From an uncultured Bacilli bacterium (GTDB taxonomy: Bacteria; Bacillota_I; Bacilli_A; RF39; UBA660), in the NCBI GenBank assembly GCA_947630935.1, contig CANRJL010000001.1, positions 1 to 47,372 of the forward strand: a stretch of DNA of 47,372 nt. The letters are read 5' to 3'. Both the position numbers and the translations under genes were made by a program. The notes below the pieces were generated by a model. That model made no database searches, had not been told where the DNA came from, and saw only the letters and a program-made list of their open reading frames with translations. Shown one piece after another: positions 4,216-41,023 of this stretch (the stretch's first letter is position 1; each line of letters starts with the position of its first letter).

Positions 4216-5031
4216 TTATTTTTTCTTTTTCTTTTTTGGCTCTTTTAGTTTAGGAATATCTTCTATTTTTTTATTTTTTTTATTTTTACCTACTTCAATA
4301 ATAACTGAAGTTTTCTTTAAAGGGTCTTCTTCATTTTCACTTCTTTTTATGCCATATTTAGAATTTAGTTTTTCTTCTATTTCTTTTTTCTTTTTAGCAT
4401 TTTCTTCTTTTTTCTGTTCTTCTTTTAAAACAATATCAGCAATATCTTTTTGAGCACTTTGTAATCTTATTAATTTTAAGATATCAAAAAGAATGATTAA
4501 AAAGGCTGGGATTACAACAAGAATTAACCAACCCCATCTCGTTGTTAGAATTGATTGAAGTCTTCCTAATTGGGGAATTTTAAAGATTACTTTACCAATA
4601 ATGTTTTCAAATCTTACTGTAGCACTGTCAGGGACTTCATTATTATCCCCTTTTGTTTGGAATTGATAACCATTCTCATCGTTTGTTATGGAGTAAACAC
4701 GATGGGTTATCGTAAACCCTTTGGAAATGGTAGATGTTGAAATAAATGTAATAACATCACCAACTTTAATATCTTCAGGTTTTTTAACTTTGACATTAAC
4801 TATTACATCATAAATGTTTAGATTTGGCTCCATACTTGGTGAAATAATTGTATATAAACCAAAAGATGCTTTATAATCAGGGTTTTTATTTGCATAAACT
4901 TTAGTAGCAATAAAATAGTAAAGAAGAACTATTGCCACTAGAATTAATAAGATAAAAATAGTCCAAGATATAACAGTTGTAACAAAATGGACTTTATGTT
5001 TAATTGAGCTGTATTTTTCTTGTTTCTTCAT
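4216..5031 (-). CDS. sipW: Signal peptidase I, ER/archaeal (SipW) type
   Basis: N-terminal TM, then SPSMEP (catalytic Ser), ITHRV (His) and KGDNN boxes typical of SipW-type S26 peptidases. A second TM (WGWLILVVIPAFLIILF) and a Lys/Glu-rich tail follow. Confidence 0.8.
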   Translation of the reverse strand: MKKQEKYSSIKHKVHFVTTVISWTIFILLILVAIVLLYYFIATKVYANKNPDYKASFGLYTIISPSMEPNLNIYDVIVNVKVKKPEDIKVGDVITFISTSTISKGFTITHRVYSITNDENGYQFQTKGDNNEVPDSATVRFENIIGKVIFKIPQLGRLQSILTTRWGWLILVVIPAFLIILFDILKLIRLQSAQKDIADIVLKEEQKKEENAKKKKEIEEKLNSKYGIKRSENEEDPLKKTSVIIEVGKNKKNKKIEDIPKLKEPKKKKKK

Positions 5032-5134: not shown

Positions 5135-7282
5135 TTATTTTAAAGTTGGATAACCTGTTTCTTGGTCAATAACCCAATCACTTAAGGCTAAATTAAAGTA
5201 ATTGCTATTATATTTATGGTTTATTAAGTCATTATTAATATTTGGCAAGTTGATATCTTGGCGGCCTTTTGTTAATTTGTATATTAAACCATTGGTGTTT
5301 GTGGGGTCTGTTATTTTCATATAAGTTTCACTTAAGGCTTGGGCACTTGTATTATTACTTCCCGATGCACCACCACTTTTATAGTAGGTATCTTTAACAT
5401 CACCATTATATAAGTAGCCAATTTGATATCTAGTACTTCCGCCTAGAACATCTCCCGAGTTATAGGTATTATAAATCTGCTTATGAACATCGTTATTCCA
5501 AGTAACGGTATTAGCAATGCCGCCAACATAATTATGCGAAGTATTATCTTTGATAGTACCTGCATTATAACTATTTAAGATATGGCCACCACCTTGCACT
5601 AAACCAATTAAACCAGCTACTGAACCATTGTAAGCGACAGTTCCGGTATAGGTTACGCTTCCTTTATTATAACTATTTACTATAAAGGTTGTTCCATAAT
5701 TAGCAGCAACTAAACCACCTAAAGATATGATGCCTGTATCAGTTCCTTTACCATTAGTTGATATTTCACCAGCATTATACGAATTATTTATATAGCAATT
5801 ACCATTACTTAAAGCAAGAATACCAGCATTAGTAATAATTGAGTTTTGAACAGTACCTTCATTATAACTATCACTAACGAATAAATGCGAATCATTACCA
5901 ATCGCACCAACTATGCCACCACCATGATTGCCGCCTTGTAATGTACCATGATTAGAACAATTTTCTAGTCGAACATTATCACCTTTTAAATTAATGTTGT
6001 CGTTACCAACACTGCCAATAATACCACCAACAGAATAACCACTGCCATAACTAGTTACATTAACATAATTGTGAACATTTGCTAATTCAACATTAGAGGC
6101 ATAGCTAACTAGTCCCCCAATATTGGCAGTTTCATCAGTATAGGTATTACCTGTAATAGTTAAATTTTTAATACTTCCTCCAACTACAAAACCAAATAAG
6201 CTGGCAACTGTTCGTTCTGGTTTGCCATTATTGCTATGAATATGGATATAGAGATTTTCTAAAGTATGGTTATTGCCATTAAGACTCCCCAGAAAATAAT
6301 GTTCAAAATTGCCAATTGGAGGAAAACCGGTACCATTTTGATTAGTTAATTCTGTGATTAGAGGTTCAACATCATTCACGTTGTTAAGATTACCAAAGTC
6401 TAAACGCTCGCTGTTACGGTAACTTTGGGAATCGGTAAAATCTAAATTACTATCTAAAATAAAGGTTTCATTTTGGAAATTTGCCCCACTATTTACTGAA
6501 TTACTTAAGGTTACTAAATCTTCAACTCTTTGAATGTATTTTGATTTTATTTCTAAATCAGCTGTTATATTATCAACTATTAAAGTATCATTTTCATAAC
6601 GATAATTTACTTCTTGACCAGCAATAAATGGTTTAGCGCCAATTGGATATGGTTTTTGGAGCTCCATTGCAAATGAATCATTATCAATTACTTCTTGTGG
6701 GTAAATACTAGTATCACTATCAAAGGCTGTATAAGTTACTTTATGCATTACCCGAAAATCAAAATTTAAGTCAACAAAATAATCTAGCTTATCCTTATTA
6801 TAGCCATTTTCTTTATATTTAATAATGAAATAAATTTCTTTTTGCATGCCTAAATTACATTTTAATTGGTCATCACATAATTTATCTTTTAGGGTATAAT
6901 TTACAATTTCATATTCTAAATTGTCGGCTAAGCCAGTAATATCATAGATTCCCATCGGAAGATTACCAAAGTTAGTAATTTCGATTTTATATTTTATTTG
7001 GGAATTCTCATTTGGTAAATAAACTGATGTCTTAACTTTTTTAACATTATATTCTTCCCAATTAGATATTGCTTCGTTTTGGTTAAAACTACTATCAGTT
7101 GCTACTGAAATATCAGTGACTCTAATGTCAGCTTGTGCTCTTACAGTTAAAGTAACATCATCCACTAAAAGATTTTGACTAAAAGTTGCCCACCCAAGAG
7201 AAAGAAAGAAAACCATTATAGCTAAAATAAAGAAAATAAGAGAAAAAAGAGGTTTTTCATTACCTATTTTACTTTTTTTCAT
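5135..7282 (-). CDS. Secreted/surface protein: SipW-type signal, TasA-like N-terminal region and GLUG-type repeat (beta-helix-like) C-terminal region
   Basis: 715 aa. N-terminus ends ...FFLSLGWATFSQNLLVDD. KYKIEITNFGN motif. Residues ~380-600 carry recurring N-x-G...GG[IL][IV]G/A units (IGGLVSYA, VGGIIGSV, GGGIVGAI, LGGLVAAN, VAGLIGLV, VGGIANTV). The start overlaps the upstream gene by 14 nt. Confidence 0.7.
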   Translation of the reverse strand: MKKSKIGNEKPLFSLIFFILAIMVFFLSLGWATFSQNLLVDDVTLTVRAQADIRVTDISVATDSSFNQNEAISNWEEYNVKKVKTSVYLPNENSQIKYKIEITNFGNLPMGIYDITGLADNLEYEIVNYTLKDKLCDDQLKCNLGMQKEIYFIIKYKENGYNKDKLDYFVDLNFDFRVMHKVTYTAFDSDTSIYPQEVIDNDSFAMELQKPYPIGAKPFIAGQEVNYRYENDTLIVDNITADLEIKSKYIQRVEDLVTLSNSVNSGANFQNETFILDSNLDFTDSQSYRNSERLDFGNLNNVNDVEPLITELTNQNGTGFPPIGNFEHYFLGSLNGNNHTLENLYIHIHSNNGKPERTVASLFGFVVGGSIKNLTITGNTYTDETANIGGLVSYASNVELANVHNYVNVTSYGSGYSVGGIIGSVGNDNINLKGDNVRLENCSNHGTLQGGNHGGGIVGAIGNDSHLFVSDSYNEGTVQNSIITNAGILALSNGNCYINNSYNAGEISTNGKGTDTGIISLGGLVAANYGTTFIVNSYNKGSVTYTGTVAYNGSVAGLIGLVQGGGHILNSYNAGTIKDNTSHNYVGGIANTVTWNNDVHKQIYNTYNSGDVLGGSTRYQIGYLYNGDVKDTYYKSGGASGSNNTSAQALSETYMKITDPTNTNGLIYKLTKGRQDINLPNINNDLINHKYNSNYFNLALSDWVIDQETGYPTLK

Positions 7283-8411
7283 TAATATTTGGCCTTTCTA
7301 TATCACTTGCTTTTAATTGCAACAAATAAATATCATCATTGTTTTTTAAATAAAAATAGCATTTTTGATGTTTGGTAACATTGTAATACATAATAGGTAT
7401 TTTTAAATTATCCCGAACATCTAGTAATTCCGTAAATTCAGTTATTTTAAAGATATGATATTTATTAAAGTCTATTTTAGTCTTTGTTTCAACAATTAAT
7501 CTATCATAAGTTTTTAATATATTATTTAAATATTTATCATAAGCTGTTTTAGGTTTGAAGAAAATAGTTGTTAATTTAAGAAGATTAACTAAAGCCAGAA
7601 TAGCTATAATAAACGTTATAATTTCAAAAGAAAAAGTTAGAGGGTTAAATTGCCATTCTTCGGGAAGCGATAATTCATTACTTTTATTTAATGTTTCATC
7701 ATCAAATTTAATTTGCACAGCACTTTCGGATAAAGGTATAGTTACTCCACTGGTACTTGTATCTTGAAAATTCAAATGATATTTTTGACCATTTTTATTA
7801 ACTTTTAAATATACTTTTAAGTAGCTTTCTTCATTCACACCATAATTGGTTTTAAAATTATTAACTAAACTATTATAGTAATCATAATCAATAGCAATAC
7901 TTTCAGTTATAGTAAAATCTTTTTGATTTTGCATCGATAACAAAGAAGATGTAAAAAGAGGATATTCTTTTTCAAAATAACTAGCTTTTGTTTGGGGATT
8001 GGCGATGATTAATTTACCAATTATTTGATAATCAAAATCAAGAGATAAAGGTTTAGTTATATTAAATTGATAATTAAAATCAAATTTTATTTCATCTATT
8101 AAGTTGGCAACATACATCATATTTTTTTCTAAATATTCTTTTTCGTAGAAATCATTGGGTTTTAAATATACTTTGTAATCAACAGTTTGATTATCAGTAT
8201 ATTTAAGTGGTTCTGTATTTTTTATTGTAAAAGAGTTGATGGCTAAATAAAAGCAAGTTAAAAGAAAGACAATAAAGATTATGAATAAAAATGCTACTCT
8301 AATTGGATAACTAATATAAATAGGTTTTTTATTTTCTTTTTTTAAGGGTGTTGTTTTGTTTATAGTTTGTTTGGTATTCTTACGCCCTGTTGCATTGTGT
8401 TTTTTAACCAT
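7269..8411 (-). CDS. Two-TM membrane protein, possibly DUF5305 family (SipW-associated)
   Basis: Preferred start is ATG 8411 with GGTGG 5 nt upstream (ORF-track start 8444). TM near the N-terminus (VAFLFIIFIVFLLTCFYLAI) and a second TM near residue ~290 (FEIITFIIAILALVNLL). The family assignment is from memory only. Confidence 0.6.
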   Translation of the reverse strand: MVKKHNATGRKNTKQTINKTTPLKKENKKPIYISYPIRVAFLFIIFIVFLLTCFYLAINSFTIKNTEPLKYTDNQTVDYKVYLKPNDFYEKEYLEKNMMYVANLIDEIKFDFNYQFNITKPLSLDFDYQIIGKLIIANPQTKASYFEKEYPLFTSSLLSMQNQKDFTITESIAIDYDYYNSLVNNFKTNYGVNEESYLKVYLKVNKNGQKYHLNFQDTSTSGVTIPLSESAVQIKFDDETLNKSNELSLPEEWQFNPLTFSFEIITFIIAILALVNLLKLTTIFFKPKTAYDKYLNNILKTYDRLIVETKTKIDFNKYHIFKITEFTELLDVRDNLKIPIMYYNVTKHQKCYFYLKNNDDIYLLQLKASDIERPNINEKK

Positions 8412-8433
8412 ATTAACCACCTTTATTTTTCTT

Positions 8434-9558
8434 TTATTTTTCATTTAGCCAAACTGTTGGTAACCCAATATAGGGAATTTTAATATTAACTACACCAATA
8501 AACATATCTTTAGTAACAGGATAGCCATCTAAATCATCATTGGCATCTCCTTTAGTATATAAATAATATTCATTAGCATATTTTAATTTTTCAACTAAAC
8601 GGTGAACTACAATAATATTATTATATTTGAAAGCTATTACTTGACCAATAGCAACTTCATCTAAATTTTGTTTTTTTTCAACAATTACCACATCACCTTT
8701 GTGGATATTAGGACTCATACTAGCACTAGCAATAGCTAGAGCATAGTATTTAAAATAACCAGATGTAATATATACTAAAAATATGGTAATAATTATGGGA
8801 ATTATTAAAGTTCCTATTTTCTTTTTATGATATTCACGTAAGATTTCTTCATCTTTTTCTTTTTGATAAAAAAGATATATTTTACGAAGTAAGAAAAATG
8901 GAACAAACAGCCAAACTATTGAATATATGTATTGATTTGGGTTAGGAATAAATGGCAGTAAATACATAAATAATTCAATTATTAGCCGAATATATATTAC
9001 AGGTTTATAACCTGTTTTATAACTTATATAACTATATGCAATATTAGCACTTATAGTTGGTAAAACAGTTATAGCAATATAGATGAATTTATCATAAATT
9101 GGATAATTCATATTTCTTAAAAGAGATGTTGATAAATCTAAAAATATAAATAAAATGGTTGTGATTATTCTTAATAATTTTTTATCAGCAGTTTTTAAAA
9201 GCATTTGATAACGAATTATTTCTTTTAAGAAAACAATTATAATAAGGGGAATAATAATATTTGTCATACTTTTTAAAGTATAATAATTTTCAACTTTGGC
9301 AAAACCAAAAAAAATCCCCGAAAGATAATATATTAGAAAAAAGATGATTATAAATATTGATTCTTCCATTATTATATCTTTGGTATACCGGTGATTATCT
9401 TTTTCAAGGCCTAAAAACAGATGAAAACTAGCAAGCATGAGCAGAAGAAATATAATCATTTTCGTACTATCTAATATACTTGAAACAAAACTATTTAATA
9501 TTAAGATAATGAAGATGATTATTTCATATATTAATAAATTCCTATAACCTTTTTTCAT
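8434..9558 (-). CDS. Fusion protein: ~8-TM N-terminal domain + SipW-type signal peptidase I domain
   Basis: 374 aa with AGGAGG RBS. About 8 hydrophobic helices in residues 1-230, then a basic loop (QKEKDEEILREYHKKK), a TM, then SASMSPN (Ser), VHRLV (His) and KGDANDD boxes. Confidence 0.75.
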   Translation of the reverse strand: MKKGYRNLLIYEIIIFIILILNSFVSSILDSTKMIIFLLLMLASFHLFLGLEKDNHRYTKDIIMEESIFIIIFFLIYYLSGIFFGFAKVENYYTLKSMTNIIIPLIIIVFLKEIIRYQMLLKTADKKLLRIITTILFIFLDLSTSLLRNMNYPIYDKFIYIAITVLPTISANIAYSYISYKTGYKPVIYIRLIIELFMYLLPFIPNPNQYIYSIVWLFVPFFLLRKIYLFYQKEKDEEILREYHKKKIGTLIIPIIITIFLVYITSGYFKYYALAIASASMSPNIHKGDVVIVEKKQNLDEVAIGQVIAFKYNNIIVVHRLVEKLKYANEYYLYTKGDANDDLDGYPVTKDMFIGVVNIKIPYIGLPTVWLNEK

Positions 9559-9583
9559 TCTTCCTCCTAAATAGTTTTGTGAA

Positions 9584-9613
9584 AATATATTAAAGAATAC
9601 GCTTTAATATATT
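9584..9613 (-). other. Perfect 12-bp AT-rich stem-loop between the 217-aa subunit gene and the downstream peptidase-fusion gene
   Basis: AATATATTAAAG (9584-9595) / CTTTAATATATT (9602-9613) with a 6-nt loop. No T-run follows on the minus strand, so it is not a canonical terminator. Confidence 0.3.
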
Positions 9614-9620
9614 ATGGTTT

Positions 9621-10274
9621 TTAATTGGCATCTGATGAACTATATGTTAATGTTATGTCGCCAAAGGTAACATCGAAATCACCGTCGATTGGTGATGAAT
9701 CGGAATATTCTAAAATTACTTTAACTTCTTTGCTTGTTTTAGTTGAAATTGATTTAGTAGTAATATTTTCTTTATTTTGAGTATATTCATCTTGGTCCAC
9801 TATTACTTTTATTGAAACATCAGAACAAGCTGTGTTAGCTAATTCGGCATCGGCTGGACTATCACCAGCTGTTGGAGTACATTGAGGTTTTTCTTGCGCA
9901 AATGATACTTTTTTTAAGTAAGCATCAAGTTCGCCATTATTATATACATAAAAACTATAGGTTGCAGTTTGTTTGCCTTTGCCTTTAGTGAAAGTAGCAT
10001 TTAAGTTACTAATTGTTGTTGACATTAAATTAGCATCTGTAGCTGAAAATCCATCTTCTTCTGGTGGAACAAGTGTTGGTTTGACAGAGCCAGTACTGGC
10101 TTCTTCAGATTCGGTCGAAAATTTGACATCAAATTTACTTCTGTCTCCTTTAACATTGGCACTGGAAGAAATTGTTAAGTTTTGAGAATATGAAGCGAAA
10201 CCTAGTGATACACCAAGAACTGCAATAATTAAAGCAATAATAGCAATTATTTTGGAACTACGGTCTTTTTCCAT
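9621..10274 (-). CDS. Secreted TasA/camelysin-like protein with SipW-type signal
   Basis: 217 aa with AGGAGGTG RBS. N-terminus KIIAIIALIIAVLGVSLGFASYSQNLTISS. YSFYVYNNG motif. The C-terminal beta-strand-like end is DFDVTFGDITLTYSS. Confidence 0.6.
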   Translation of the reverse strand: MEKDRSSKIIAIIALIIAVLGVSLGFASYSQNLTISSSANVKGDRSKFDVKFSTESEEASTGSVKPTLVPPEEDGFSATDANLMSTTISNLNATFTKGKGKQTATYSFYVYNNGELDAYLKKVSFAQEKPQCTPTAGDSPADAELANTACSDVSIKVIVDQDEYTQNKENITTKSISTKTSKEVKVILEYSDSSPIDGDFDVTFGDITLTYSSSDAN

Positions 10275-10534: not shown

Positions 10535-13500
10535 CTAATCTTTTAGTGATTTATCTTCACCAATAGCAATTGCTGCACTGTATTTTTTACCTTGTTGTTT
10601 GTTTTGGTCTTGTAAAGTATCTTTGAAAGTGTATATAACATCATAACTATAAACGGTATGAGCTGGTATCATAATCTCTGGGAATAAGACGCCATCTTCG
10701 ATTGGCGATGGACTTTCGCCTTTATCCAGAGCTCTATCTTTTTTGATAACGTATACTAAATCGGACGGTGGGTCAAATTCATTAGTTACACTTTCAAAAT
10801 TGATACTATAGAATATCGCTCGGTCAGTTGAATTGTTTATAGTGAAGGTTTGAGTTCCTGTCCAATTCGGCATGATTCCGGTTTCATTAATGCCTTTAAC
10901 GTAATTTATTAAAAAGACGCCATCATCACCACAATTAAAGTCACAGTTACCATCATGGTCATTATCAACAAATTTATCTGGTTTACCATCACCATTGGTA
11001 TCACAGTTTAAATCACAATGGTCATCGTTATCGATATCACAGTTTAAATCGCAGTGGGAATCACCATCTAAGAAGCAATTCCAATCACATTTACCATCTT
11101 TATCTTTATCGACATTTTTATCTGGTTTACTATCACCATCGGTATCACAGTTTAAGTCACACTGGTCATCCCAATCGGTATCACAATCAATATCACATAA
11201 ACCATCTTTATCTTTGTCTAAGTTTTTATCTGGGATATCATCATCATCAGTGTCACAGTTGGTATCGCAACGACCATCGCCATTATTATCACAGTTTAGG
11301 TCACATTTACCATCTTTGTCAGTATCACAATTGGTATCACATTTACCATCATTGTTATTATCACAGTTTAGGTCGCATTTGCCGTCACCATCTTTATCGA
11401 CATTGGTATCAGGTTTATCATCATTATCAGTATCACAGTTAGTGTTACATTTATCGCTACCCTCATTATAGCAATTTAAGTCACACTTACCATCGCCATC
11501 TTTATCAACGTTTTTATCTGGCTTATCATCGCCGTTGGTATCACAGTTAGTGTTACATTTATCGCTACCCTCATTGTAACAATTTAAGTCACACTTACCA
11601 TCACCATTTTTATCGACATTTTTATCTGGCTTGTCATCATCGTTGGTATCACAGTTTAAATCACATTTGCCATCATTGTTGGTGTCACAATTTAAATCGC
11701 ATTTGCCGTCACCGTTTTTATCGACATTGGTATCAGGTTTGTCATCATTATTGGTATCGCAGTTTAATTCGCACTTACCATCATTGTTGGTATCACAATT
11801 TAAGTCACATTTACCATCGTTGTTATTATCACAATTTAGGTCACATTTATCGTCGTTATTGGTATCACAATTTAAGTCACACTTGCCGTCGCCGTTTTTA
11901 TCAACATTGGTATCAGGTATTTTATTGTTGTCAGTATCACAGTTAAGGTCACATTTGCCATCATTGTTGGTGTCACAGTTTAAGTCACACTTACCATCAT
12001 CATTTTTATCAACATTAGTATCTGGTTCTCCATCGCCATTATTATCACAATTTTTATCGCAAGTGCCATCATTATTGATATCGCAATTTAAGTCACACTT
12101 ACCATCTTTATTGGTGTCACAGTTTAAATCACACTTACCATCGCCATTCGTATCGCAATTTAAGTCACATTTACCGTCATTGTTGGTATCGCAATTAGTA
12201 TCGCATTTACCATCGTTATCGGTATCACAGTTTAAATCACAAATACCATCACCGTTTTTATCAACATTAGTATCTGGTTCTCCATCAGCATTGGAGTCAC
12301 AGTTGGTATCACATTTGCCGTCACCATCAATATCACAGTTGTAGTTACATGTTTTATCATCACAATTATAATCGCATTTACCATCGCCATTACTATCACA
12401 ATATTTGTTACATAAACCATCACCAGTGGTATCACAATTTAAATCACAGAAGCCATCTTTATTATTATCTAAATTTTTATCAGGAATATTATCATTATTG
12501 GTGTCACAATTTAATTCGCATTTGCCATCATTGTTGGTATCACAGTTTAAATCACAAACACCATCATTATCTTTGTCAACATTTAAATCAGGAATACCAT
12601 CGTTATTCGTGTCACAATTTTTATCACATTTATCATCATTATTGATATCACAGTTTAAATCGCAAGTACCATCATTATTGGTATCACAATTATAATCACA
12701 TTTACCATCATTATTGGTATCGCAGTTTACATCGCATTTGCCGTCGCCAGTAATGTCAACATTAGTATCTGGTAGGCCATCACCATTGGTGTCACAGTTT
12801 AGGTCACACTTACCATCGTTGTTGGTATCGCAATTTAAGTCACATTTACCGTCACCATTGGTATCGCAATTTAAGTCACACTTATCATCATTATCTTTGT
12901 CAATGTTTAAATCAGGAGTGCCATCATTATTCGTGTCACAATTTAGGTCACATTTACCATCACCGTCTTTATCAATGTTTAAATCAGGTTCATCATCACC
13001 ATTGGTGTCACAATTTAATTCACATTTGCCATCACCATTGGTATCGCAGTTTAAATCGCAAATGCCATCATCATTTTTATCGACGTTTTTATCTGGCTTA
13101 TCATCATTGTTGGTATCACAGTTAGTATCGCAGGTACCATCACCGTTGATGTCACAGTTTAAGTCACAAGTACCATCGCCATCAGTATCAACATTAGTAT
13201 CTGGTTTATCATCATTATTGGTATCGATATTTTTATCAGGAATATCATCATTATTAGTATCACAATTTAATTCACATTTGCCGTCATTGTTGGTATCACA
13301 GTTTAAATCACACTTACCATCGCCGTTTTTATCAACGTTTTTATCTGGCTTGTCATCATTGTTGGTATCACAATTTAATTCACATTTGCCATCACCATTG
13401 GTATCACAATTTAGGTCACACTTACCATCACCATCTTTATCGATGTTACTATCAGGAATATTATCACCATTGGTATCGCAGTTTAAATCGCAATAATAAT

Positions 13501-14374
13501 CACCATTGGTATCACAGTTTAGGTCACACTTACCATCGCCATCAAGGTCAACATTTAAATCAGGTTTTTGGTCATTGTTTTTATCGATATTTTGGTCAGC
13601 TAAACCATCGTTATTAGTATCACAGTTTATATCACATTTGCCGTCACCATCAGTATCAATATTTAGGTCTGGTTTGCCATCACCATCGACATCGATGTTG
13701 ATATCTGGAAAACCATCGTTATTAGTATCACAGTTTAAGTCACATTTACCATCACCGTTTTTATCTTGATTCATTAAATTTTCATTTGGTTTGCCATCAC
13801 CAGTAGTATCAATATTAATATCTGGTTTACCATCTCTGTCAATATCAATATTAATATCTGGTTTGCCATCACCATCGACATCAATGTTTAAGTCTGCTTG
13901 GCCATCACCATCAATATCAATATTAATATCTGGGCGATTATCTTTATCAATATCACAGTTTAAATCACACTTACCATCATTATCAGTATCTTGATTAATC
14001 ATATTTTTGTCAGCGATGCCATCGCCATTAGAATCAACATTAAATACTGCAGAATGAATTTGACCATAACTTATATTAACATCTGGCAATTTATCATCAT
14101 TAGTGTCAATATCATAGTCAGCTTTACCATCATTATTATAATCACAGTTTAAATCACAGATGCCGTCACCATTTAAATCTTGATTTAAGGTATTACGACT
14201 GGAATGAAAAATCTTAATATAGCTATAAGTAGAACCTACTATTCCTAAAAACATAATTAAAAATAACAGAATAATAATTATTATAGTTCTTCTTCTTTCT
14301 TTTTCTTTTTCATTATCTAGTAAATCAGCATATTTTTTTTCTAAACCGTAGTCATTTAAACTATTTTTATCCAT
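10535..14374 (-). CDS. Giant secreted Asp/Asn/Cys-rich repeat protein (thrombospondin type-3-like Ca-binding repeats) with SipW-type signal and TasA-like C-terminal domain
   Basis: 1279-aa uninterrupted ORF with AGGAG RBS. N-terminus RRRTIIIIILLFLIMFLGIVGSTYSYIKIF. Residues ~66-1152 are 12-aa units such as CDLNCDTNNDGK and PDTNVDKNGDGK. The last 127 aa are non-repetitive (IMPNWTGTQTFTINNS ... QGKKYSAAIAIG). Confidence 0.85.
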   Translation of the reverse strand: MDKNSLNDYGLEKKYADLLDNEKEKERRRTIIIIILLFLIMFLGIVGSTYSYIKIFHSSRNTLNQDLNGDGICDLNCDYNNDGKADYDIDTNDDKLPDVNISYGQIHSAVFNVDSNGDGIADKNMINQDTDNDGKCDLNCDIDKDNRPDINIDIDGDGQADLNIDVDGDGKPDINIDIDRDGKPDINIDTTGDGKPNENLMNQDKNGDGKCDLNCDTNNDGFPDINIDVDGDGKPDLNIDTDGDGKCDINCDTNNDGLADQNIDKNNDQKPDLNVDLDGDGKCDLNCDTNGDYYCDLNCDTNGDNIPDSNIDKDGDGKCDLNCDTNGDGKCELNCDTNNDDKPDKNVDKNGDGKCDLNCDTNNDGKCELNCDTNNDDIPDKNIDTNNDDKPDTNVDTDGDGTCDLNCDINGDGTCDTNCDTNNDDKPDKNVDKNDDGICDLNCDTNGDGKCELNCDTNGDDEPDLNIDKDGDGKCDLNCDTNNDGTPDLNIDKDNDDKCDLNCDTNGDGKCDLNCDTNNDGKCDLNCDTNGDGLPDTNVDITGDGKCDVNCDTNNDGKCDYNCDTNNDGTCDLNCDINNDDKCDKNCDTNNDGIPDLNVDKDNDGVCDLNCDTNNDGKCELNCDTNNDNIPDKNLDNNKDGFCDLNCDTTGDGLCNKYCDSNGDGKCDYNCDDKTCNYNCDIDGDGKCDTNCDSNADGEPDTNVDKNGDGICDLNCDTDNDGKCDTNCDTNNDGKCDLNCDTNGDGKCDLNCDTNKDGKCDLNCDINNDGTCDKNCDNNGDGEPDTNVDKNDDGKCDLNCDTNNDGKCDLNCDTDNNKIPDTNVDKNGDGKCDLNCDTNNDDKCDLNCDNNNDGKCDLNCDTNNDGKCELNCDTNNDDKPDTNVDKNGDGKCDLNCDTNNDGKCDLNCDTNDDDKPDKNVDKNGDGKCDLNCYNEGSDKCNTNCDTNGDDKPDKNVDKDGDGKCDLNCYNEGSDKCNTNCDTDNDDKPDTNVDKDGDGKCDLNCDNNNDGKCDTNCDTDKDGKCDLNCDNNGDGRCDTNCDTDDDDIPDKNLDKDKDGLCDIDCDTDWDDQCDLNCDTDGDSKPDKNVDKDKDGKCDWNCFLDGDSHCDLNCDIDNDDHCDLNCDTNGDGKPDKFVDNDHDGNCDFNCGDDGVFLINYVKGINETGIMPNWTGTQTFTINNSTDRAIFYSINFESVTNEFDPPSDLVYVIKKDRALDKGESPSPIEDGVLFPEIMIPAHTVYSYDVIYTFKDTLQDQNKQQGKKYSAAIAIGEDKSLKD
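10919..14179 (-). repeat. In-frame tandem coding repeat, 36-nt period (108-nt higher order), ~90 units
   Basis: The periodicity is visible in both the DNA and the translation. The opposite strand is stop-free over long stretches as a side effect. Confidence 0.9.
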
Positions 14375-14481: not shown

Positions 14482-14503
14482 AAAAAAAAAGACCAACGGT
14501 CTT
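14482..14503 (-). terminator. Intrinsic terminator of the 221-aa TasA-like gene
   Basis: On the minus strand: AAGACC-GTT-GGTCTT followed by T9, starting 2 nt after the stop codon. Confidence 0.6.
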
Positions 14504-14504
14504 C

Positions 14505-15170
14505 TTATGCAGCATCGTTTACTTCAAAACCAATATCTAAACTAAATGTTTTGCCTTGTTCAGCATTTTGGTCTTGACCAGCGTCATTAACATATTCTAG
14601 ATATAAATAATACATACTATCAGTAGAAGTATCAACAGTAATATCTTCAGTAATAGGAGTATCAGATGCAATTATTTGAGCATTATGACCAGCAACTTCT
14701 TTACCTTCTAATGAAGTTAAAGTACAAGTCATTTTATCATAATGTTTATGGTCATCAGTTTCAGGGTCTGATGGTTGAGATGAAGTACATAATTCTTCTG
14801 CTGTAATATCAGAATAATCAGGACTATCAACTTTGTAAAGAGTATATTTCATATGACTTGGAAATAATGTTGAACCTGTTGGAGTCAATTTAATAGTTGC
14901 TTTAGTTGACTCAGCTCCAGCTTCTCCTCCTCCTTTAACTTTTAAAGTTTTTATTCCTTTCCAGCCTGGTAAAGCATCTGTTACTTCGATTTTATCTCCT
15001 AATGTCATAGTAGCTGATGCTAATGCTTTAGTTTTAATTTGAGTAGTATTATTAGCTGGGTTATCAATTTTTACATTTGCAGTGAAATATGCGAATGTTG
15101 CCCCAACAACTGCTACTAATAAAGTGGCAACAGCTATTACTGTTAATAAAACCATATTTTTCCTTTCCAT
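14505..15170 (-). CDS. Secreted TasA/CalY/camelysin-like matrix-fibre protein with canonical SipW-type signal
   Basis: 221 aa with GAGAGGAG RBS. N-terminus VLLTVIAVATLLVAVVGATFAYFTANV is close to the G-T-F/Y-A-F/Y-F-S/T signature of SipW-cognate signals. LPGWKGIKTLKVKGG motif. C-terminal DQNAEQGKTFSLDIGFEV resembles the camelysin-family C-terminus. The gene has its own promoter-like and terminator elements. Confidence 0.7.
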   Translation of the reverse strand: MERKNMVLLTVIAVATLLVAVVGATFAYFTANVKIDNPANNTTQIKTKALASATMTLGDKIEVTDALPGWKGIKTLKVKGGGEAGAESTKATIKLTPTGSTLFPSHMKYTLYKVDSPDYSDITAEELCTSSQPSDPETDDHKHYDKMTCTLTSLEGKEVAGHNAQIIASDTPITEDITVDTSTDSMYYLYLEYVNDAGQDQNAEQGKTFSLDIGFEVNDAA

Positions 15171-15410: not shown

Positions 15411-17768
15411 TTAATTAATTGTTGGGTCAAATTTATGAAATATTTTTTGACAAAAATCGTACAATTTTTTAAAGACATATAAGGAATCTAAAATTAAGAC
15501 AAAACTTATTAGAATTGTTTCAGGACTAAATTTAGTTAAGTTAAAAAATTCGTTTTGAAATGTGATACAATAGATGAAGCCAATTAACATAATGCTAAAC
15601 AAAATTCTTCTTAGCCAACTAAAGGGAATACTTATTTTGTAAAGGAATATTAAACCTGTAATACCTGTTAGATATACAGCTAAGGTGTTGATAAGGGTAT
15701 AATCAAGATGAAAAATATTAGCAAAAGCGGTTATTAAGATTATGTTAAAAAATACCGTTAAAGCAGTAGGCAGGCTTTTACTAATTATTCGTAAAAGAAA
15801 TTTCCCTCTTACTAAATCATTGTTGGGCTCTAAAGCTAAAATAAATGAGGGAATACCAATAGTAAAACTGGTAATTAGGGTTAATTGAATAGGTACAAAA
15901 AAGTATTTAGAACCAACGATGATGCTAAAGATGATTAAAAGCATGGTATAAATAGTTTTAACTAAAAGTAAAGAACTAGACCGTTCAATGTTATTAATGG
16001 TACGTCTTCCTTCGGCTACTATTTTAGGTAAAGAATCAAAATTATCATTTAATAAGACTAATTGCGCAACATTACGAGCTGAATCAGTGGCACTAGCAAG
16101 AGAAATGGCACAGTCACTTTTTTTCAATGCTAAGACATCATTTACACCATCGCCAGTCATAGCTACACATTTACCATTATTTTGTAATGTTTCAATAATT
16201 ACTTTTTTTTGATTAGGCGTTACTCTACCAAAAATAGCATATTCGGATACCGCATTTTTTAATTCTTCTTCACTTAGATTAGCCGTATCAAGGGCTTTGG
16301 CGGTAGTTAAGCCAACTTTGTTAGCAATTTTTAAAACTGTTTGGTAACTATCACCGGAAATTATTTTGACATCTACTCCTTGTTTTTTAAAGTAAGCTAA
16401 GGTATCTTTAGCTTCTTGTCTTATTACATCTTCCAAAGTTATGAAAGCTAAAGGTTCCAAATTTTTAGGGTTTTTAGAGATATCTGTTTTACTTTTAGCA
16501 ACTAATAAAACCCGATATTCTTTTTGATAAGAATTTAATTTAGGATATTGGTTTTGGCGTTTTTCTTCTAATAAATATTCTGGGGCTCCTAAATAAATTG
16601 TCTCGTCTTTAAAAGCAATAGCCGAAAATTTGCGTTCACTAGAAAATGGTAACTTATCTAAGACTTCAAGTTTTTTTTCTTCTTTAAAGTATTCTTTTAA
16701 AGCACGCATGGTGGCATTATTATCTGAAGATGCTGAGGCAAAAGCATTTATAATTTCAGTAACTTCTTCTTGAGAAGAATTAAGAGGTATTATTTCTTTT
16801 ACTAACATATTGCCTTTAGTTAAGGTGCCAGTTTTATCTAAGCAAATAGTATCAACTCTTGCTAGAGTTTCTATGCAATATAATTGCTGAACTAAAACTT
16901 TATATTTTGCTAATCTAATAACACTTACAGCCATGACAGAACTGGTTAGTAAAACTAAACCTTCAGGAATCATTCCTATTAAGGAAGCAACTGTTGTAAA
17001 AATAGCTTCGGAAACATTGCCATTGGTACTGTTATATTGACTGAAAAACATAACAATTCCAATTGGAATAATTAAATAAGAAATTAGTTTTAAGATATCT
17101 TCAAAAGATTTCATTATAATGGAATTGATTGGTTTTTGATATTTAGCTTCTTTAGATATTTTAGAGGTATAATTGTCAGCTCCAATATGTTCTATTTTGG
17201 CTAGACAACTACCACTGACAATAAAAGAACCTGATAAAAGCATATCTTTTTTTCTTTTAATAATTGTATCAGATTCACCAGTGATAAATGATTCATTTAC
17301 TTCTACTTCATCTTCCATAATAATGGCATCAGCAGTGATTTGGTCGCCAGCACTTACTTTAATAATATCATCTAAGACTAATTCTTCTAAATTACATTTT
17401 TTTTCGGTACCATCTCTAATAACAGTTATTGCAGATTCACTAATAATAGAAAGTCTATCTATTATTTTTTTGGAAATTATTTCTTCAATAATACTAATAA
17501 TTGAATTGATAATAATAACACCCATGAAAAGACAATTTTTTAAACCATTTAAAAAATTATTATTTAATAAACCAGCAATGAAAACGGCGATGCCTAAAGC
17601 AATATTTAAAAAATTAAAGTAAGTAAAAAAATTATCTTTAATTATTTGGGCAATTGTTTTGGTTTTAGGTTGGTCATTATAATTTGTTAAACCATCTTTT
17701 ATTCGTTGTTCTACTTCTTCGGTTGTTAGACCTTTGGTAAGAGGTGGTGAATATCGTTGAACTTTCAT
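15411..17768 (-). CDS. Cation-translocating P-type ATPase (P2-like, substrate unknown)
   Basis: 785 aa with TGES (ITGESD), PEGL (MIPEGLVLL), DKTGTLT and MTGDGVNDVLALKK motifs and multiple C-terminal TMs. Confidence 0.9.
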   Translation of the reverse strand: MKVQRYSPPLTKGLTTEEVEQRIKDGLTNYNDQPKTKTIAQIIKDNFFTYFNFLNIALGIAVFIAGLLNNNFLNGLKNCLFMGVIIINSIISIIEEIISKKIIDRLSIISESAITVIRDGTEKKCNLEELVLDDIIKVSAGDQITADAIIMEDEVEVNESFITGESDTIIKRKKDMLLSGSFIVSGSCLAKIEHIGADNYTSKISKEAKYQKPINSIIMKSFEDILKLISYLIIPIGIVMFFSQYNSTNGNVSEAIFTTVASLIGMIPEGLVLLTSSVMAVSVIRLAKYKVLVQQLYCIETLARVDTICLDKTGTLTKGNMLVKEIIPLNSSQEEVTEIINAFASASSDNNATMRALKEYFKEEKKLEVLDKLPFSSERKFSAIAFKDETIYLGAPEYLLEEKRQNQYPKLNSYQKEYRVLLVAKSKTDISKNPKNLEPLAFITLEDVIRQEAKDTLAYFKKQGVDVKIISGDSYQTVLKIANKVGLTTAKALDTANLSEEELKNAVSEYAIFGRVTPNQKKVIIETLQNNGKCVAMTGDGVNDVLALKKSDCAISLASATDSARNVAQLVLLNDNFDSLPKIVAEGRRTINNIERSSSLLLVKTIYTMLLIIFSIIVGSKYFFVPIQLTLITSFTIGIPSFILALEPNNDLVRGKFLLRIISKSLPTALTVFFNIILITAFANIFHLDYTLINTLAVYLTGITGLIFLYKISIPFSWLRRILFSIMLIGFIYCITFQNEFFNLTKFSPETILISFVLILDSLYVFKKLYDFCQKIFHKFDPTIN

Positions 17769-17858
17769 AATATCTTTCCTTTCGCTTTTTATTATAACAT
17801 GTATTTTAATATCTCGTAAATAATAGCAAAAGAAAGTTAGTATAAAAAAAGAAAGAAA

Positions 17859-20450
17859 TTAAACACCTCTTTTAATACCTTTCTTTTTAAGAATTATTTT
17901 GCGGATAAAATCAATGGGAATGACAGTGAGACTTAAAATGATGACTAACATTAATTCAAAAGGAGTTAAACCAAAGGTGCGAAAAAGACTACCTCCTTTA
18001 TATATTAGAAAAATTTGAACACTGGCAATGAAAATGATTGTTATGATAAAAACAATATTTTTTCTTAAATGAGCAAATAAATTTAAACGATAGGTTCGAG
18101 CATTAAAAGCATTTGCTATACCAATAAATATAAATAAAGCAAAGTAAGCAGTCATTAAATATTTTAATTCTTGGTCTGTTCTAATTAAGGTTTTTATCCA
18201 AGAAGATTTGAGAAAAAAAATACAGAGCATGGCTGAATATAAACCTGTCCAAATTACTTCGGAAATCATATATTTGTTTAAGATTGGTTCATTTTTCTTT
18301 TTGGGAGGTTCTTTCATAGTTTCTGGTAAAGCTGGTTCAAAGGAAAAAGCTAAGCCGGCAAAAGTATCCATAATCATATTTATCCAAAGCATTTGAATTA
18401 TGGTTATTGGCGTATTTACACCAATAAAAGGGCCAATTATTGATAAGAATAAAGCACAGAAATTACAGGTTAGTTGATATATAAGAAATTTACGAATACT
18501 TTTAAAGATAGTTCGACCATATAAAATAGCTTTACTAATTGACATTATGTTATCATCTAAAATGACAATATCACTAGCTTGTTTGGCAACTTCGGTGCCA
18601 CTGCCCATGGCAAACCCAACATTAGCTTTTTTGAGGGCTGGAGCATCATTTACCCCATCGCCAGTCATTCCCACAATTAATTCTTTATTTTCGGCAATTT
18701 TGATTAATTTACTTTTATCTTTTGGTAAAGCCCTGGCAATTACGCGAAGATTGGGCAGCATTTTTTCAAGTTCATATTCTGAATAGGAATTTAATTGGTC
18801 ACTTGTTAAGACAAGGTCAGTAGGTTTAGTAATTATCCCTACTTCTTTGGCAATGGCTGTAGCTGTTTCTTTAGCATCACCAGTAATCATGACAACTTGA
18901 ATTTGAGCGTCTTTAATTAATTTAACTCCTTCTTTAGCTTCTTTTCTTAAATCATCTTTTAAAGTAACAAACCCAATAAAAGTTAAATCATCTAAAGACT
19001 TTCCATAGGCTAAAGAAATAACTCGACAGCCTTGTTTGGTCAAATTATTAATTTCAGTTTCTATTTTTTGCTTGTCTAATAAATATTTTTCGGTGCCATT
19101 TTTTAATAACATTTTATGACATTTAGGTAAAATTTTTTCACTAGCTCCTTTGATATAAAAGTATTGTTCATGGTTGTCGATGATGGTTGCAGTTGAATAT
19201 TTATTAGCACTATCAAAAGGAGTTTTAGCAATAATTTGCACATTGGCAGTTTTTTCATGAGCTAAAAAGGAAAGTAATGCTTGGTCAGTGGAATTACCGC
19301 CAATAATTTTATTTTGAGAAAAAACACTGCTGTTGTTATAATATAAGTTATTTTCAATATGTTTTGCTAATTGTTCATATTTCCAAAAGTCATTTTTAGT
19401 TTTGAAATTAAGTAATTCACCAGTAGTTATGCCTATTACTTCTAATTTTCCTTTGGTTAGAGTACCTGTTTTATCAGTAAATAAAATGTTTAAAGAACCT
19501 GTTGTTTCGATTCCGACTAATTTACGAACTAAAACATTATTTTTTAACATTCTTTTCATATTGCTAGATAACACTAAAGTAATCATCATCGGCAGTCCTT
19601 CAGGTACTGCTACTACTATGATGGTGACAGATAAGGTTAAGGCATAAATTAAGTAATCTGCCATTTGCTGAAAATCTGTCAAGGTATTTATAATTTCTGG
19701 CATAGAAAAATGATTATTGATTACTATGACAGAAAATAAATAAGAAAATGTAACCAACACCGCCCCGATATAACCAATTTTACTAATTGTTTTAGCTAAG
19801 CCACGCAAGCGAAGTTTTAAGGGACTCATAGGTTCTTTTTCTTGAATTTCTTGAGCAAGTGCTCCATAAACAGTATTTTCGCCAACTTTAGTTACTAACA
19901 TTTTAGCTTGTCCCGAATAAACAACTGAGCCTCGTAAAACTTGCGATTTAAGATTGTCTTTAGCGATAGCTTCTTTCTTAATTTCTTTGCTTTCACCATT
20001 TAATTTAGATTCATCAACTGATATACTTCCTTCTATTAGATAACCATCTGCAGGAATGGCATCACCAGAAGTAAGAATAATGACGTCATCAACTACTACT
20101 TGTTCTAAAGGTATTTCTTTTAAAAGATTATTTCTAAATACTTTCACAAAAGTTTTAGCACTTTCTTCTTGTAATCTTTTAAAGGCTTCTTCACTACCAT
20201 ATTCACTGATGGTTGAGATAAATGAGGACAAAAAAATAGCAATTAAAATTCCTAAGGTTTCAAACCAGTCAAAATCGCGAAACAAAAAAACTATTTTAAT
20301 AGCTAAGGCTATTAAAAGAATTTTGATAATAGGATCGCCTAAAGACTCTAAAAGGAGTCTTAAAAAGCCTTTTTGTTTGACTTTGATAATTGTATTTGTT
20401 CCATATTCTTTTCTTCGTTTTTCGACTTCTTTGTCTGTTAGTCCTATCAT
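17859..20450 (-). CDS. P-type ATPase, Ca2+-ATPase-like (PMCA/SERCA-type P2)
   Basis: 863 aa. N-terminal GLTDKEVEKRRKEYGTN, VPEGLPMMITL (PEGLP), TDKTGTLT, MTGDGVNDAPALKKANVGFAMG and 10-TM-like hydrophobic segments. Confidence 0.85.
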   Translation of the reverse strand: MIGLTDKEVEKRRKEYGTNTIIKVKQKGFLRLLLESLGDPIIKILLIALAIKIVFLFRDFDWFETLGILIAIFLSSFISTISEYGSEEAFKRLQEESAKTFVKVFRNNLLKEIPLEQVVVDDVIILTSGDAIPADGYLIEGSISVDESKLNGESKEIKKEAIAKDNLKSQVLRGSVVYSGQAKMLVTKVGENTVYGALAQEIQEKEPMSPLKLRLRGLAKTISKIGYIGAVLVTFSYLFSVIVINNHFSMPEIINTLTDFQQMADYLIYALTLSVTIIVVAVPEGLPMMITLVLSSNMKRMLKNNVLVRKLVGIETTGSLNILFTDKTGTLTKGKLEVIGITTGELLNFKTKNDFWKYEQLAKHIENNLYYNNSSVFSQNKIIGGNSTDQALLSFLAHEKTANVQIIAKTPFDSANKYSTATIIDNHEQYFYIKGASEKILPKCHKMLLKNGTEKYLLDKQKIETEINNLTKQGCRVISLAYGKSLDDLTFIGFVTLKDDLRKEAKEGVKLIKDAQIQVVMITGDAKETATAIAKEVGIITKPTDLVLTSDQLNSYSEYELEKMLPNLRVIARALPKDKSKLIKIAENKELIVGMTGDGVNDAPALKKANVGFAMGSGTEVAKQASDIVILDDNIMSISKAILYGRTIFKSIRKFLIYQLTCNFCALFLSIIGPFIGVNTPITIIQMLWINMIMDTFAGLAFSFEPALPETMKEPPKKKNEPILNKYMISEVIWTGLYSAMLCIFFLKSSWIKTLIRTDQELKYLMTAYFALFIFIGIANAFNARTYRLNLFAHLRKNIVFIITIIFIASVQIFLIYKGGSLFRTFGLTPFELMLVIILSLTVIPIDFIRKIILKKKGIKRGV

Positions 20451-21710: not shown

Positions 21711-21773
21711 TTTTTTCAACTCCTTAATATTTAGCTATTATATGCTTTTTTGTGAATAAGTCAAGTTTTATTT

Positions 21774-21795
21774 AAAAAAGGTAGTTTGCACTACC
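21774..21795 (-). terminator. Intrinsic terminator after the NPQTG surface-protein gene
   Basis: GGTAGT-GCAA-ACTACC on the minus strand followed by T6; it starts 6 nt after the stop. Confidence 0.55.
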
Positions 21796-21800
21796 TATTT

Positions 21801-22496: not shown

Positions 22497-22683
22497 TTTC
22501 TAACCTCTTTCTTCTATTTATATTATGAACTTATTATATCATAAAAATACCTTTTTTCTACTTTTTTTTCAAAATTTTTTGCTTTTTTGTAAATAAATGA
22601 CAATTCCAAAAAAATGCGAATAATTCGTGCAAATTTTAATAAAATATGTTAATATATATAAAGAATAGAAATGTGGTGAAAAA

Positions 22684-28000: not shown

Positions 28001-28012
28001 TTTAGTCCTCCT

Positions 28013-29031: not shown

Positions 29032-29049
29032 CAGGCTACTCCTTTCTTT

Positions 29050-29313: not shown

Positions 29314-29331
29314 TTATTCCTCCTAATATTA

Positions 29332-29598: not shown

Positions 29599-29675
29599 AA
29601 TATTCCTCCTAACTCTATATATAATTTTATTATATCTTTTTTTGCTTTTTTTATCAATAAATTTTTATTTGTTTA

Positions 29676-31360: not shown

Positions 31361-31375
31361 TTTTATTCCTTCTTT

Positions 31376-32479: not shown

Positions 32480-32511
32480 TATGGCTCATCCCTTTCTATT
32501 CTTTTTATTCT

Positions 32512-33366: not shown

Positions 33367-33384
33367 TTTTATTCCTCCTTAATT

Positions 33385-41021: not shown

Positions 41022-41023
41022 AT

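Follow-up and report, generated by a model that had tools for sequence, protein, structure and literature searches.

TasA of Bacillus subtilis polymerizes via a strand that lies just after its SipW cleavage site, and TapA is proposed to donate the first strand from its N-terminus and to be the anchor of the fibre (PMC9674648). The BsaA oligomers of Clostridium perfringens are membrane-anchored, and no anchor protein is named in the available text of that report (PMC11580942). Genes for minor, tip and anchor subunits are common in loci of the TasA superfamily (bioRxiv 10.64898/2026.01.04.697558). Here we describe a protein of 1279 amino acids (aa), called the stalk protein below, that is encoded by an uncultured Bacilli bacterium (lineage Bacillota_I; Bacilli_A; RF39; UBA660). 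The stretch analyzed, hereafter the window, is the 47,372 nucleotides at positions 1 to 47,372 of contig CANRJL010000001.1 (GenBank assembly GCA_947630935.1). The stalk protein connects a charged tail and a single hydrophobic helix at its N-terminus to a C-terminal β-sandwich through a long array of 12-residue repeats, and its gene belongs to a cassette with genes for a small TasA-like subunit and a SipW-type signal peptidase. In our reading, to which we give a probability of about 0.5, it is a minor subunit with a stalk and serves to anchor or space a TasA-superfamily fibre whose formation depends on SipW.

The cassette is like the TasA/TapA/SipW system of B. subtilis (PF12389; PDB 5OF1, 8AUR) in its SipW-type peptidase, in small jelly-roll subunits with G-x-T-[FWY]-A at the signal end, in the PG(D/W)…N-N and Q-N-x-x-Q-G-K motifs, and in an accessory protein whose gene lies between, or beside, those of the subunit and the peptidase (PMC9674648). 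It differs in that the domain of the stalk protein is about half the size of TasA and marginally similar to it (E ~0.1). The stalk protein is also unlike TapA, bearing its fibre domain C-terminally behind a repeat stalk of ~1090 residues and a long conserved tail; to our knowledge, TapA has no fibre domain, repeat stalk or long cytoplasmic tail. Further likeness is found to the AbpX loci and to BsaA/BsaB of C. perfringens, which are TasA-superfamily loci linked to SipW or signal peptidase I with major, minor, tip and anchor subunits. AbpX loci show calcium-dependent assembly and encode a signal peptidase I with 10 transmembrane segments and a DUF5305 protein, two components that recur in a four-gene module of the window. 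However, calcium in AbpX is located at the interface of donor strand and groove and not in a repeat stalk, and the anchors described there are S-layer homology (SLH) or LPXTG proteins, whereas the stalk protein combines an N-terminal signal-anchor with a Cys-rich repeat rod.

Termini of the stalk protein and the SipW cassette

The gene starts with ATG and stays open for 3.8 kb within DNA of ~29% G+C. An earlier reading of the window from its letters alone (the sequence-only reading) had described an uninterrupted reading frame, a basic stretch followed by a hydrophobic helix, ~90 tandem 12-mers of two interleaved kinds with Asp or Asn at about half of their residues, and a non-repetitive end of 127 residues. 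The present analysis agrees in each respect, with 89 units and with Asp and Asn together making up 46% of residues 66-1152. Over the whole protein the composition is 25.0% Asp, 16.2% Asn, 9.0% Gly, 8.9% Cys and 8.5% Lys.

The N-terminus reads MDKNSLNDYGLEKKYADLLDNEKEKERRR-TIIIIILLFLIMFLGIVGSTYSYIKIF and has one hydrophobic segment by hydropathy (residues 30-48). The preceding tail carries a family motif, [DNE][YFL][EQ][ED]Q[YF] and then an acidic/basic stretch (…EEKEK…KK), which occurs in 41 of 48 distinct orthologues and is represented in the window by a diverged version, KKYADLL. The end of the helix, G-S-T-Y-S-Y, parallels VGATFAYFTA in the 221-aa protein encoded next to it; its strict form, G[AS]T[YF][STA][YF], is present in 18 of the 48 orthologues, with relaxed forms in most others. 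Only ~5-10 residues separate the signature from low-complexity sequence, and they read [IY][KR][ILV][YF], vs FTA[TS] in the small subunits. The SipW-cognate signal expected by the sequence-only reading is not matched by its model, TIGR04088, in the N-terminal 72 residues of the stalk protein, and the link appears at the family level only: in the family profile, residues 26-95 align with the small-subunit signal region, but weakly, at 11 bits.

At the other end, an AlphaFold2 (AF2) model of residues 1094-1279 shows a nine-strand sandwich, with local confidence scores (pLDDT) mostly above 90. An exhaustive search of representative proteins with an alignment of this domain and four homologues sharing the architecture yielded 1583 representative homologues at E ≤ 1e-3, and 504 at E ≤ 1e-10. 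Four architectures are seen: proteins of ~175 aa made of a SipW-type signal (…VGATFAYFTA…) and the domain; proteins in which the same N-terminal module precedes other domains, e.g., DUF6273, DUF285 or InlB B-repeats; that of the stalk protein; and variants with another cytoplasmic N-domain. Relatives of the first two architectures match PF12389 (Peptidase_M73) at 19-40 bits, some of them below the cut-off of 22.5, mainly over the signal and the first strands. In the PDB, the best sequence match of a 59-sequence family profile is TasA (5of1, 8aur; E 0.08-0.11), over the PG(D/W)…F…N-N region. The family profile scores 119 bits on the 221-aa neighbour and 133 bits on residues 1127-1275 of the stalk protein; by BLASTP, the C-terminal domain gives a 15-residue match to the 221-aa neighbour (E 0.001) and nothing to a 217-aa neighbour. 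Among the structures matched by Foldseek, the TasA fibre 8aur_A has the highest query TM-score (0.37). The assignment to the TasA superfamily is drawn from several weak but concordant lines and from context, with no single significant match. What stands of the TasA-like cap proposed by the sequence-only reading is the relationship to the 221-aa protein and the connection to TasA, the latter weak but consistent and seen at the level of the family.

Judged from these alignments, the stalk protein looks like a small subunit split by a stalk, and the alignment with TasA would place the split roughly where TasA has its donor strand and linker. No sorting signal is found at the C-terminus, which ends in …AIAIGEDKSLKD without a hydrophobic segment. 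Among other carriers of the domain, one protein has the small TasA-like domain C-terminally and an N-terminus that looks like a type IV prepilin. In four proteins of 500-1250 aa the domain is N-terminal and accompanied by DUF6273, DUF285, InlB-repeat or M26-like domains; such proteins may act as tip adhesins on the same fibres.

A genome scan seeded with an alignment of the small subunits gave 356 loci, and the best 80 of them, which were examined, come almost entirely from metagenome-assembled genomes (MAGs) of mouse, rabbit, human, chicken and rumen origin, labelled as uncultured gut 'Bacilli', 'Tenericutes', 'Mycoplasma sp. CAG:776' or Erysipelotrichaceae. Including four true orthologues from a whole-protein search and more from the genome scan, at least 56 distinct orthologues of 386-1198 aa were collected, and the window protein is the longest found. 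Their stalks contain 6-74 hits of the unit's regular expression (81 in the window protein on the same count) and 2-54 Cys pairs. The nearest relative, from a rabbit-gut MAG, is 49% identical in the C-terminal domain and 61% at the N-terminus. The order of the cassette is one or more small-subunit genes, the stalk gene just downstream, and then a SipW orthologue; in three loci the latter, 48-53% identical to the 271-aa peptidase of the window, directly follows the stalk gene. SipW is present in 51 of 68 related loci, and blastp detects an orthologue of the 221-aa protein beside the stalk gene in 47 of the 68. The association with SipW put forward from the window alone is therefore conserved across genomes.

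These features suggest how the protein may act. It would be inserted N-in/C-out via its long conserved cytoplasmic tail and the single helix ending in the SipW-substrate signature. The C-terminal jelly-roll would be a TasA-like core with an equivalent of the self-complementing strand of TasA, parted by the stalk from its own N-terminal strand, and this core would join the fibre of the 221-aa subunit through strand complementation. The stalk would set the distance from the membrane-proximal N-terminus to the fibre, in a tether or 'periscope' role. Cleavage by SipW after T-Y-S would turn this tethered form into a released form, whose new N-terminus (YIKIF…; peptide YIKIFHSSRNTL) could serve as a TapA-like donor strand for the 221-aa subunit. 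The tether is favoured over release, as conservation is stronger in the cytoplasmic tail than in the signature at the cleavage site. The SipW cleavage, the strand complementation, the position of the stalk protein at the fibre end and the disulfides of the stalk discussed below are steps that we infer.

Release is central to an alternative in which the protein is a TapA-like nucleator or cross-linker: SipW would remove the signal-anchor, the YIKIF… strand would fill the groove of the first 221-aa subunit and nucleate the fibre, the distant C-terminal core would cap another fibre or accept its donor strand, and the stalk would be a rigid cross-link of the matrix with no anchor in the cell. The location of the gene between those of the TasA-like subunit and SipW recalls the tapA-sipW-tasA operon (PMC9674648), the helix ends in a SipW-type T-[YF]-[SA], and the stalk is inserted at the position of the TasA donor strand and linker in the profile alignment. 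However, the short segment after the signature differs from that of the small subunits, the conserved cytoplasmic tail would have no role, and sequence similarity to TapA is absent, which leaves the nucleator rather unlikely.

It is also conceivable, albeit improbable, that the protein is a stand-alone stalked adhesin, whose C-terminal sandwich binds a ligand or glycan on a membrane-anchored stalk without polymerizing with TasA-like subunits. The best Foldseek matches of the domain are PA14, CBM35, the C-terminal domain of C. perfringens enterotoxin and RBD1 of C. difficile, with E-values of 1e-3 to 1e-2 that are similar to or better than that of TasA; stalks of the same repeat unit carry unrelated adhesin domains, e.g., MucBP, InlB B-repeat and Big, and stalk length varies widely among orthologues, as in 'periscope' adhesins. 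Nevertheless, with TM-scores of ~0.3 and identities of 7-14%, these matches reflect no more than a generic jelly-roll. The domain also shares homology with the small SipW-type subunits encoded alongside, and its gene is fixed in one cassette with theirs and that of SipW.

Repeat units, cysteine pairs and calcium-type loops

The units were counted with a census anchored on the pattern [CPA]-[DEN]-x-[NDYKF]-[CVILMF]. Of the 88 spacings between the 89 units, 84 are exactly 12 residues. The census distinguishes 57 C-type units (consensus C-D-L-N-C-D-T-N-[NG]-D-[GD]-K), ~27 P-type units with Pro at position 1 and Val, Ile or Leu at position 5 (consensus P-D-x-N-[VI]-D-K-[DN]-G-D-G-K), and 5 A-type units with Ala at position 1 and Ile, Leu or Met at position 5. 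Self-identity of residues 66-1152 is 0.53 at lags of 12 and 24 and rises to 0.60 at lag 36, vs ~0.06 at neighbouring lags; the 36-residue period arises because the units tend towards a C-C-P order. At the DNA level, units with an identical peptide all differ from one another (87-88% nucleotide identity), and longer copies within the array are only 60-80% identical. The divergence of these copies and their synonymous differences imply that the array is old and maintained by selection on the peptide, and make rapid length switching driven by slippage unlikely. Assembly collapse, an assembly artefact or recent slippage was likewise rejected as the source of the array, in view of the divergence of the copies and the existence of orthologues. 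Open reading frames of 67-260 aa repeating SQFKSHLPS… lie opposite the array within 10995-13994 (+), e.g., at 11631-12344; they are frame shadows of the repeat and no genes.

All 114 Cys residues of the protein, at residues 73-1148, fall within 57 CxxxC pairs. The expectation of more than 100 Cys in CDxNCD pairs is borne out in number and in pairing, but that strict form occurs only 43 times and CxxxC describes the pair as a whole. Cys occupies both positions 1 and 5 in 55 of 55 regular C-type units, and Val, Ile or Leu occupies position 5 in 26 of 26 P-type units. The coupling extends to the family: among 1341 in-phase units of 56 distinct orthologues, 441 have Cys at both positions, none has Cys at position 1 only, one has it at position 5 only, and 899 have it at neither. 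Position 5 and position 1 of the next unit are uncoupled across the orthologues (668 mixed vs 122 Cys-Cys pairs). This pattern indicates that positions 1 and 5 form a putative intra-unit staple. The simplest explanation would be a local clamp, either a disulfide or a hydrophobic contact, in which the Cys pair is interchangeable with a Pro/Ile-Val pair. In the proposed rod, positions 1 and 5 would clamp each unit by Cys-Cys, most simply as a disulfide, or by the Pro/Ile-Val hydrophobic pair.

With 114 Cys and an array so rich in Asp and Asn, one may ask whether the protein is instead an extracellular thiol/carboxylate metal sponge or redox buffer, in which Cys pairs and Asp/Asn bind Zn, Cu, Cd or Fe or scavenge oxidants and calcium has no role. 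Free thiols would be expected in the reduced gut lumen, and two P-type ATPase genes, one with sub-threshold heavy-metal-type scores, lie directly upstream. This is very unlikely, however. The C-type and Pro/Ile-type units replace each other both in a single protein and from one orthologue to another, the number of Cys pairs being 2-57 and some stalks having hardly any Cys, which implies that Cys is not essential to the function of the module; isolated C-type units between P-type units are common, which excludes a four-Cys metal site as a general feature; and the ATPase genes are adjacent in only 1 of 68 related loci.

The second conserved feature of the unit is its calcium-type loop. The Dx[DN]xDG motif binds Ca2+ in a near-identical way in at least a dozen unrelated folds, independently of context, and requires one more ligand, an acid or an amide, further along the chain, which can be as close as two residues past the motif (PMC3123361). 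The array contains 59 strict Dx[DN]xDG motifs, vs 3.7±1.9 (maximum 12) in 1000 composition-preserving shuffles, and every one of the 59 is followed by Asp or Glu at +9; 84 motifs of this kind are counted when Asp, Asn or Ser is allowed in place of Gly. These figures make the calcium-loop logic of the sequence-only reading reasonable. Read from position 6, the unit D-T-N-G-D-G-K-C-D-L-N-C aligns position by position with the 12-residue EF loops of polcalcin, DTNGDGKISLSE and DTDGDGCIDFNE, except at position 12, where Glu in polcalcin is replaced by Cys, Val, Ile or Leu. The loops thus share D1, N/D3, D5, G6 and D9, with 6-7 positions identical to polcalcin, and differ in position 12, in the absence of flanking helices and in the head-to-tail arrangement of 89 loops. 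The EF-hand is defined by a helix-loop-helix with Glu or Asp as residue 12 of the loop, and the array, whose models have no helices, departs from it. An AF2 model of residues 493-636, made, like all stalk models, without ions, has a pLDDT of 88.3 and a predicted TM-score (pTM) of 0.76. It contains no helices and no strands, but an isolated β-bridge per unit, from position 5 to position 3 of the next unit, with a 12-residue period; the stalk part of the C-terminal model shows the same bridge pattern.

In our reading of these motifs, each unit may be one Dx[DN]xDG calcium-motif loop of EF-loop length, concatenated without helices, and the Asp of the next unit would complete the site. Outside the cell, the 89 units would fold into a thin, non-helical rod, stiffened by calcium. 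Residues 6-11 (D-x-[ND]-x-D-G) and Asp2 of the next unit would form one EF-loop-like site for one Ca2+, i.e., ~60-85 ions per molecule at most, and the length of the rod can be roughly estimated at tens of nanometres.

The sequence-only reading had gone further in calling the array thrombospondin type 3 (TSP3)-like. TSP3 consists of 13- and 23-residue motifs with disulfides that join consecutive repeats, whereas the stalk unit has a length of 12 and its Cys residues are coupled within the unit. The TSP_3 profile (Pfam PF02412) has no match by hmmscan in the whole protein (E up to 1) or in a 144-aa stalk fragment (E up to 10). A phmmer search of the PDB (E ≤ 10) finds no thrombospondin chain, the nearest entries being filamin and alphavirus E1 at E ≥ 0.09, and Foldseek, which may be weak on coil-rich repeats, gives 0 matches to the PDB at E ≤ 10 for the stalk model. 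By these comparisons the array has no similarity to solved T3 repeats such as PDB 1UX6 and is not detectable as a member of the TSP3 family, and the likeness does not hold as homology. Descent of the array from the TSP_3 family of animal thrombospondins and bacterial OmpA-like proteins is the least likely of the rival readings and hardly credible: it would explain the common D-x-D-x-D-G-x-x-D core, the Cys near the loops and the Dx[DN]xDG type of the thrombospondin T3 sites, but such loops are known to arise convergently (PMC3123361).

Two profile matches were rejected as compositional. The Pfam Filamin model scores 28.1 bits over the whole protein with no single stretch passing, which reflects the Asp-rich repeats, and the NCBIfam MSCRAMM ClfA/Sdr models score 160-186 bits, vs cut-offs of 999-2500, over the Ser-Asp (SD) regions only. 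As a type of spacer, the array does resemble the SD repeats of Clf/Sdr MSCRAMMs and 'periscope' stalks, being Asp-rich, of low complexity and variable in copy number and leading from an anchor to a functional domain. It is unlike them in that the anchor is N-terminal and not a C-terminal LPXTG signal, and the SD stalk repeats a dipeptide, whereas here the repeat is an ordered 12-mer that has a metal-loop motif and is stapled through its coupled positions 1 and 5. A 12-residue repeat containing two Cys is also present in the antifreeze protein of Tenebrio molitor, where it builds a thin, regular, disulfide-braced β-helix; its consensus is TCTxSxxCxxAx, with a Cys spacing of 6 and no Asp/Asn metal loops. 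This fold is not detectably shared, as the Foldseek search of the PDB with the stalk model found no match.

Several points weigh against an anchoring, calcium-loaded stalk subunit. At the N-terminus, the strict SipW signature is limited to 18 of 48 orthologues, the conservation of the tail in 41 of 48 is unusual for a peptide that is simply cut off, and the residual N-terminal strand is short. At the C-terminus, the Peptidase_M73 relationship anticipated by the sequence-only reading is not seen in the stalk protein itself: PF12389 has no match in the whole protein or in its C-terminal 129 residues (E up to 10), and Foldseek ranks 8aur_A only 25th (E 7e-3), behind generic carbohydrate-binding modules, PA14 and viral jelly-rolls. 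In the stalk, the strict motif is present in only 59 of 89 units, Gly being replaced by Asp, Asn or Ser in the others; with Cys, Val or Ile in place of the bidentate Glu of EF position 12, the coordination sphere is incomplete unless the Asp of the next unit contributes; and binding of Ca2+ is something that we infer from the motifs. Disulfides are uncertain in a gut organism that appears to be anaerobic, and the Pfam matches of the proteins of the window include no thiol-oxidoreductase.

The Cys-free form of the unit, P-D-x-N-[IV]-D-x-D-G-D-G-K, has a much wider occurrence. The whole-protein search yielded 748 matches at E ≤ 0.001, mostly large Firmicutes surface proteins with MucBP, InlB B-repeat or Big domains and 10-36 Cys-free units each; the carriers include proteins of C. 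difficile and Coprobacillus. In proteins whose tail resembles a sorting signal, that signal directly follows the Cys-free array, the end of which lies at a median distance of 52 residues from the C-terminus. Neither Pfam nor NCBIfam has a model covering this 12-mer, which on its distribution appears to be a widespread stalk module of Firmicutes surface proteins. The unit also occurs in proteins with a type IV pilin-like N-terminus, and one InlB-repeat protein that carries it has 10 Cys pairs. Literature searches gave no description of the repeat, the family or the architecture, and searches with peptide strings were also empty. This agrees with the statement of the sequence-only reading that no characterized protein has this architecture, but the protein is not unique, given its orthologues and the common Cys-free unit. 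The TasA superfamily, SipW cassettes, Dx[DN]xDG loops and repeat stalks, from which it is composed, are each known already; the repeat module may be structurally new.

Neighbouring genes in the window

The coordinates of the stalk gene, its parts and its partners are collected in Table 1. The 221-aa protein matches TIGR04088 (E 4e-5, 23.6 bits, cut-off 19) and scores 17.7 bits with PF12389. The strong hairpin that separates its gene from the stalk gene would fit weaker expression of the latter, as for a minor vs a major component.

Table 1. Location of the stalk gene, its segments and associated features in the window
Feature	Position	Strand	Basis
Stalk protein gene, 1279 aa	10535..14374	(-)	whole reading frame including stop, intact; both termini conserved in 52-57 orthologues of related loci
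Charged, predicted cytoplasmic tail, residues 1-29, …NDYGLEKKYADLLDNEKEKERRR	14288..14374	(-)	family motif
Single hydrophobic helix ending in SipW-type G-S-T-Y-S-Y, then I-K-I-F, residues 30-56	14207..14287	(-)	hydropathy, signature
Array of 89 tandem ~12-residue units, residues 61-1152	10919..14194	(-)	unit census, autocorrelation, motif counts, AF2
C-terminal β-sandwich, divergent TasA/camelysin-like family, residues 1153-1279, motifs MPNWTGTQTFTINNS, SVTNEF, QNKQQGKKYS	10535..10918	(-)	AF2, profiles
Terminator-like hairpin, 9-bp stem and T run, between the 221-aa gene and the stalk gene	14486..14506	(-)	consensus scan, pattern match only
221-aa TasA-like small subunit, presumed major fibre subunit, immediately upstream of the stalk gene	14505..15170	(-)	TIGR04088, weak PF12389
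Four-gene module between the stalk gene and its SipW	5135..10274	(-)	Pfam, NCBIfam, hydropathy
271-aa signal peptidase I of SipW type, conserved alongside the stalk gene	4216..5031	(-)	TIGR02228 106.7 bits (cut-off 51.85)

Two SipW-type peptidases are encoded in the window, the second scoring 74.9 bits with TIGR02228; the two signal peptidase genes lie at 4216-5031 and 8434-9558. The four-gene module comprises secreted proteins of 217 and 715 aa with signals ending in SLGFASYSQNL and SLGWATFSQNL, respectively, a 374-aa signal peptidase I with ~8-10 N-terminal transmembrane segments, and a 391-aa DUF5305 protein. No homologues of these four genes were found by blastp in any of the 68 related loci, and their layout matches that of AbpX-type loci, with a 10-transmembrane signal peptidase I, DUF5305 and a minor or tip subunit (bioRxiv 10.64898/2026.01.04.697558). 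The module is probably a second, separate TasA-superfamily system.

The two P-type ATPases directly upstream are encoded on the same strand, at 15411-20450 (-), and one of them is a PMCA-type Ca2+ pump (TIGR01517 602 bits, cut-off 507), while the other is unassigned. A functional tie between this pump and the stalk protein was considered and rejected as coincidence, since among the 68 related loci the adjacency recurs in only 1. Another secreted protein of very large size, with 1282 aa, 52 Cys and no Pfam match, is encoded at 33797-37645 (-), adjoining a Tad/Flp-like pilus cluster at 26963-33786 (T2SSE ATPase, RcpC/CpaB-like, DUF5411). The organism exports several Cys-rich proteins. At 20562-24261 lie the genes for a class B sortase of 525 aa, which is extended N-terminally by ~300 residues, and for two small surface proteins (385 aa with 15 Cys; 231 aa) ending in NPKTG/NPQTG-type sorting signals. 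The region 40165-45583 encodes a CotZ-like protein, two spmA/spmB-like 'Gate' proteins, a D-Ala-D-Ala carboxypeptidase and a protein of the SpoVE/FtsW family. The sortase B, its NPxTG substrates and the sporulation and peptidoglycan genes indicate a walled spore-former, despite the 'Tenericutes' and 'Mycoplasma sp.' labels on the MAGs of relatives.

Implications for fibre anchoring

Fibres of the TasA superfamily are emerging as a cross-domain way of building biofilm matrices, and outside B. subtilis little is understood of their initiation, of their anchoring and of what sets their distance from the cell. The stalk family is a concrete candidate for such a role, since it joins a membrane anchor to a fibre-type domain by a stalk of tunable length and its gene lies beside those of the subunit and SipW. 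A more ambitious view, which we regard as unlikely, is that the unit represents a new structural class without a solved analogue: a helix-free, Ca2+-threaded rod of EF-type loops, in which a switchable clamp, disulfide in C-type and hydrophobic in P-type units, would set the stiffness of each unit and make a redox- and calcium-responsive tether for uncultured gut Bacilli. A length of 6-89 units would tune the distance of the TasA-like fibre, or of its nucleation site, from the membrane. The family would also provide the kind of membrane anchor that the BsaA study inferred without identifying it (PMC11580942).

The structure of the 12-residue unit would annotate many proteins and show whether EF-type loops can form a metal-loaded rod. 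The near-strict co-occurrence of Cys1 and Cys5 amounts to a natural experiment on interchangeable clamps, and protein engineers might take an interest in the module as a spacer that calcium or redox state can tune.

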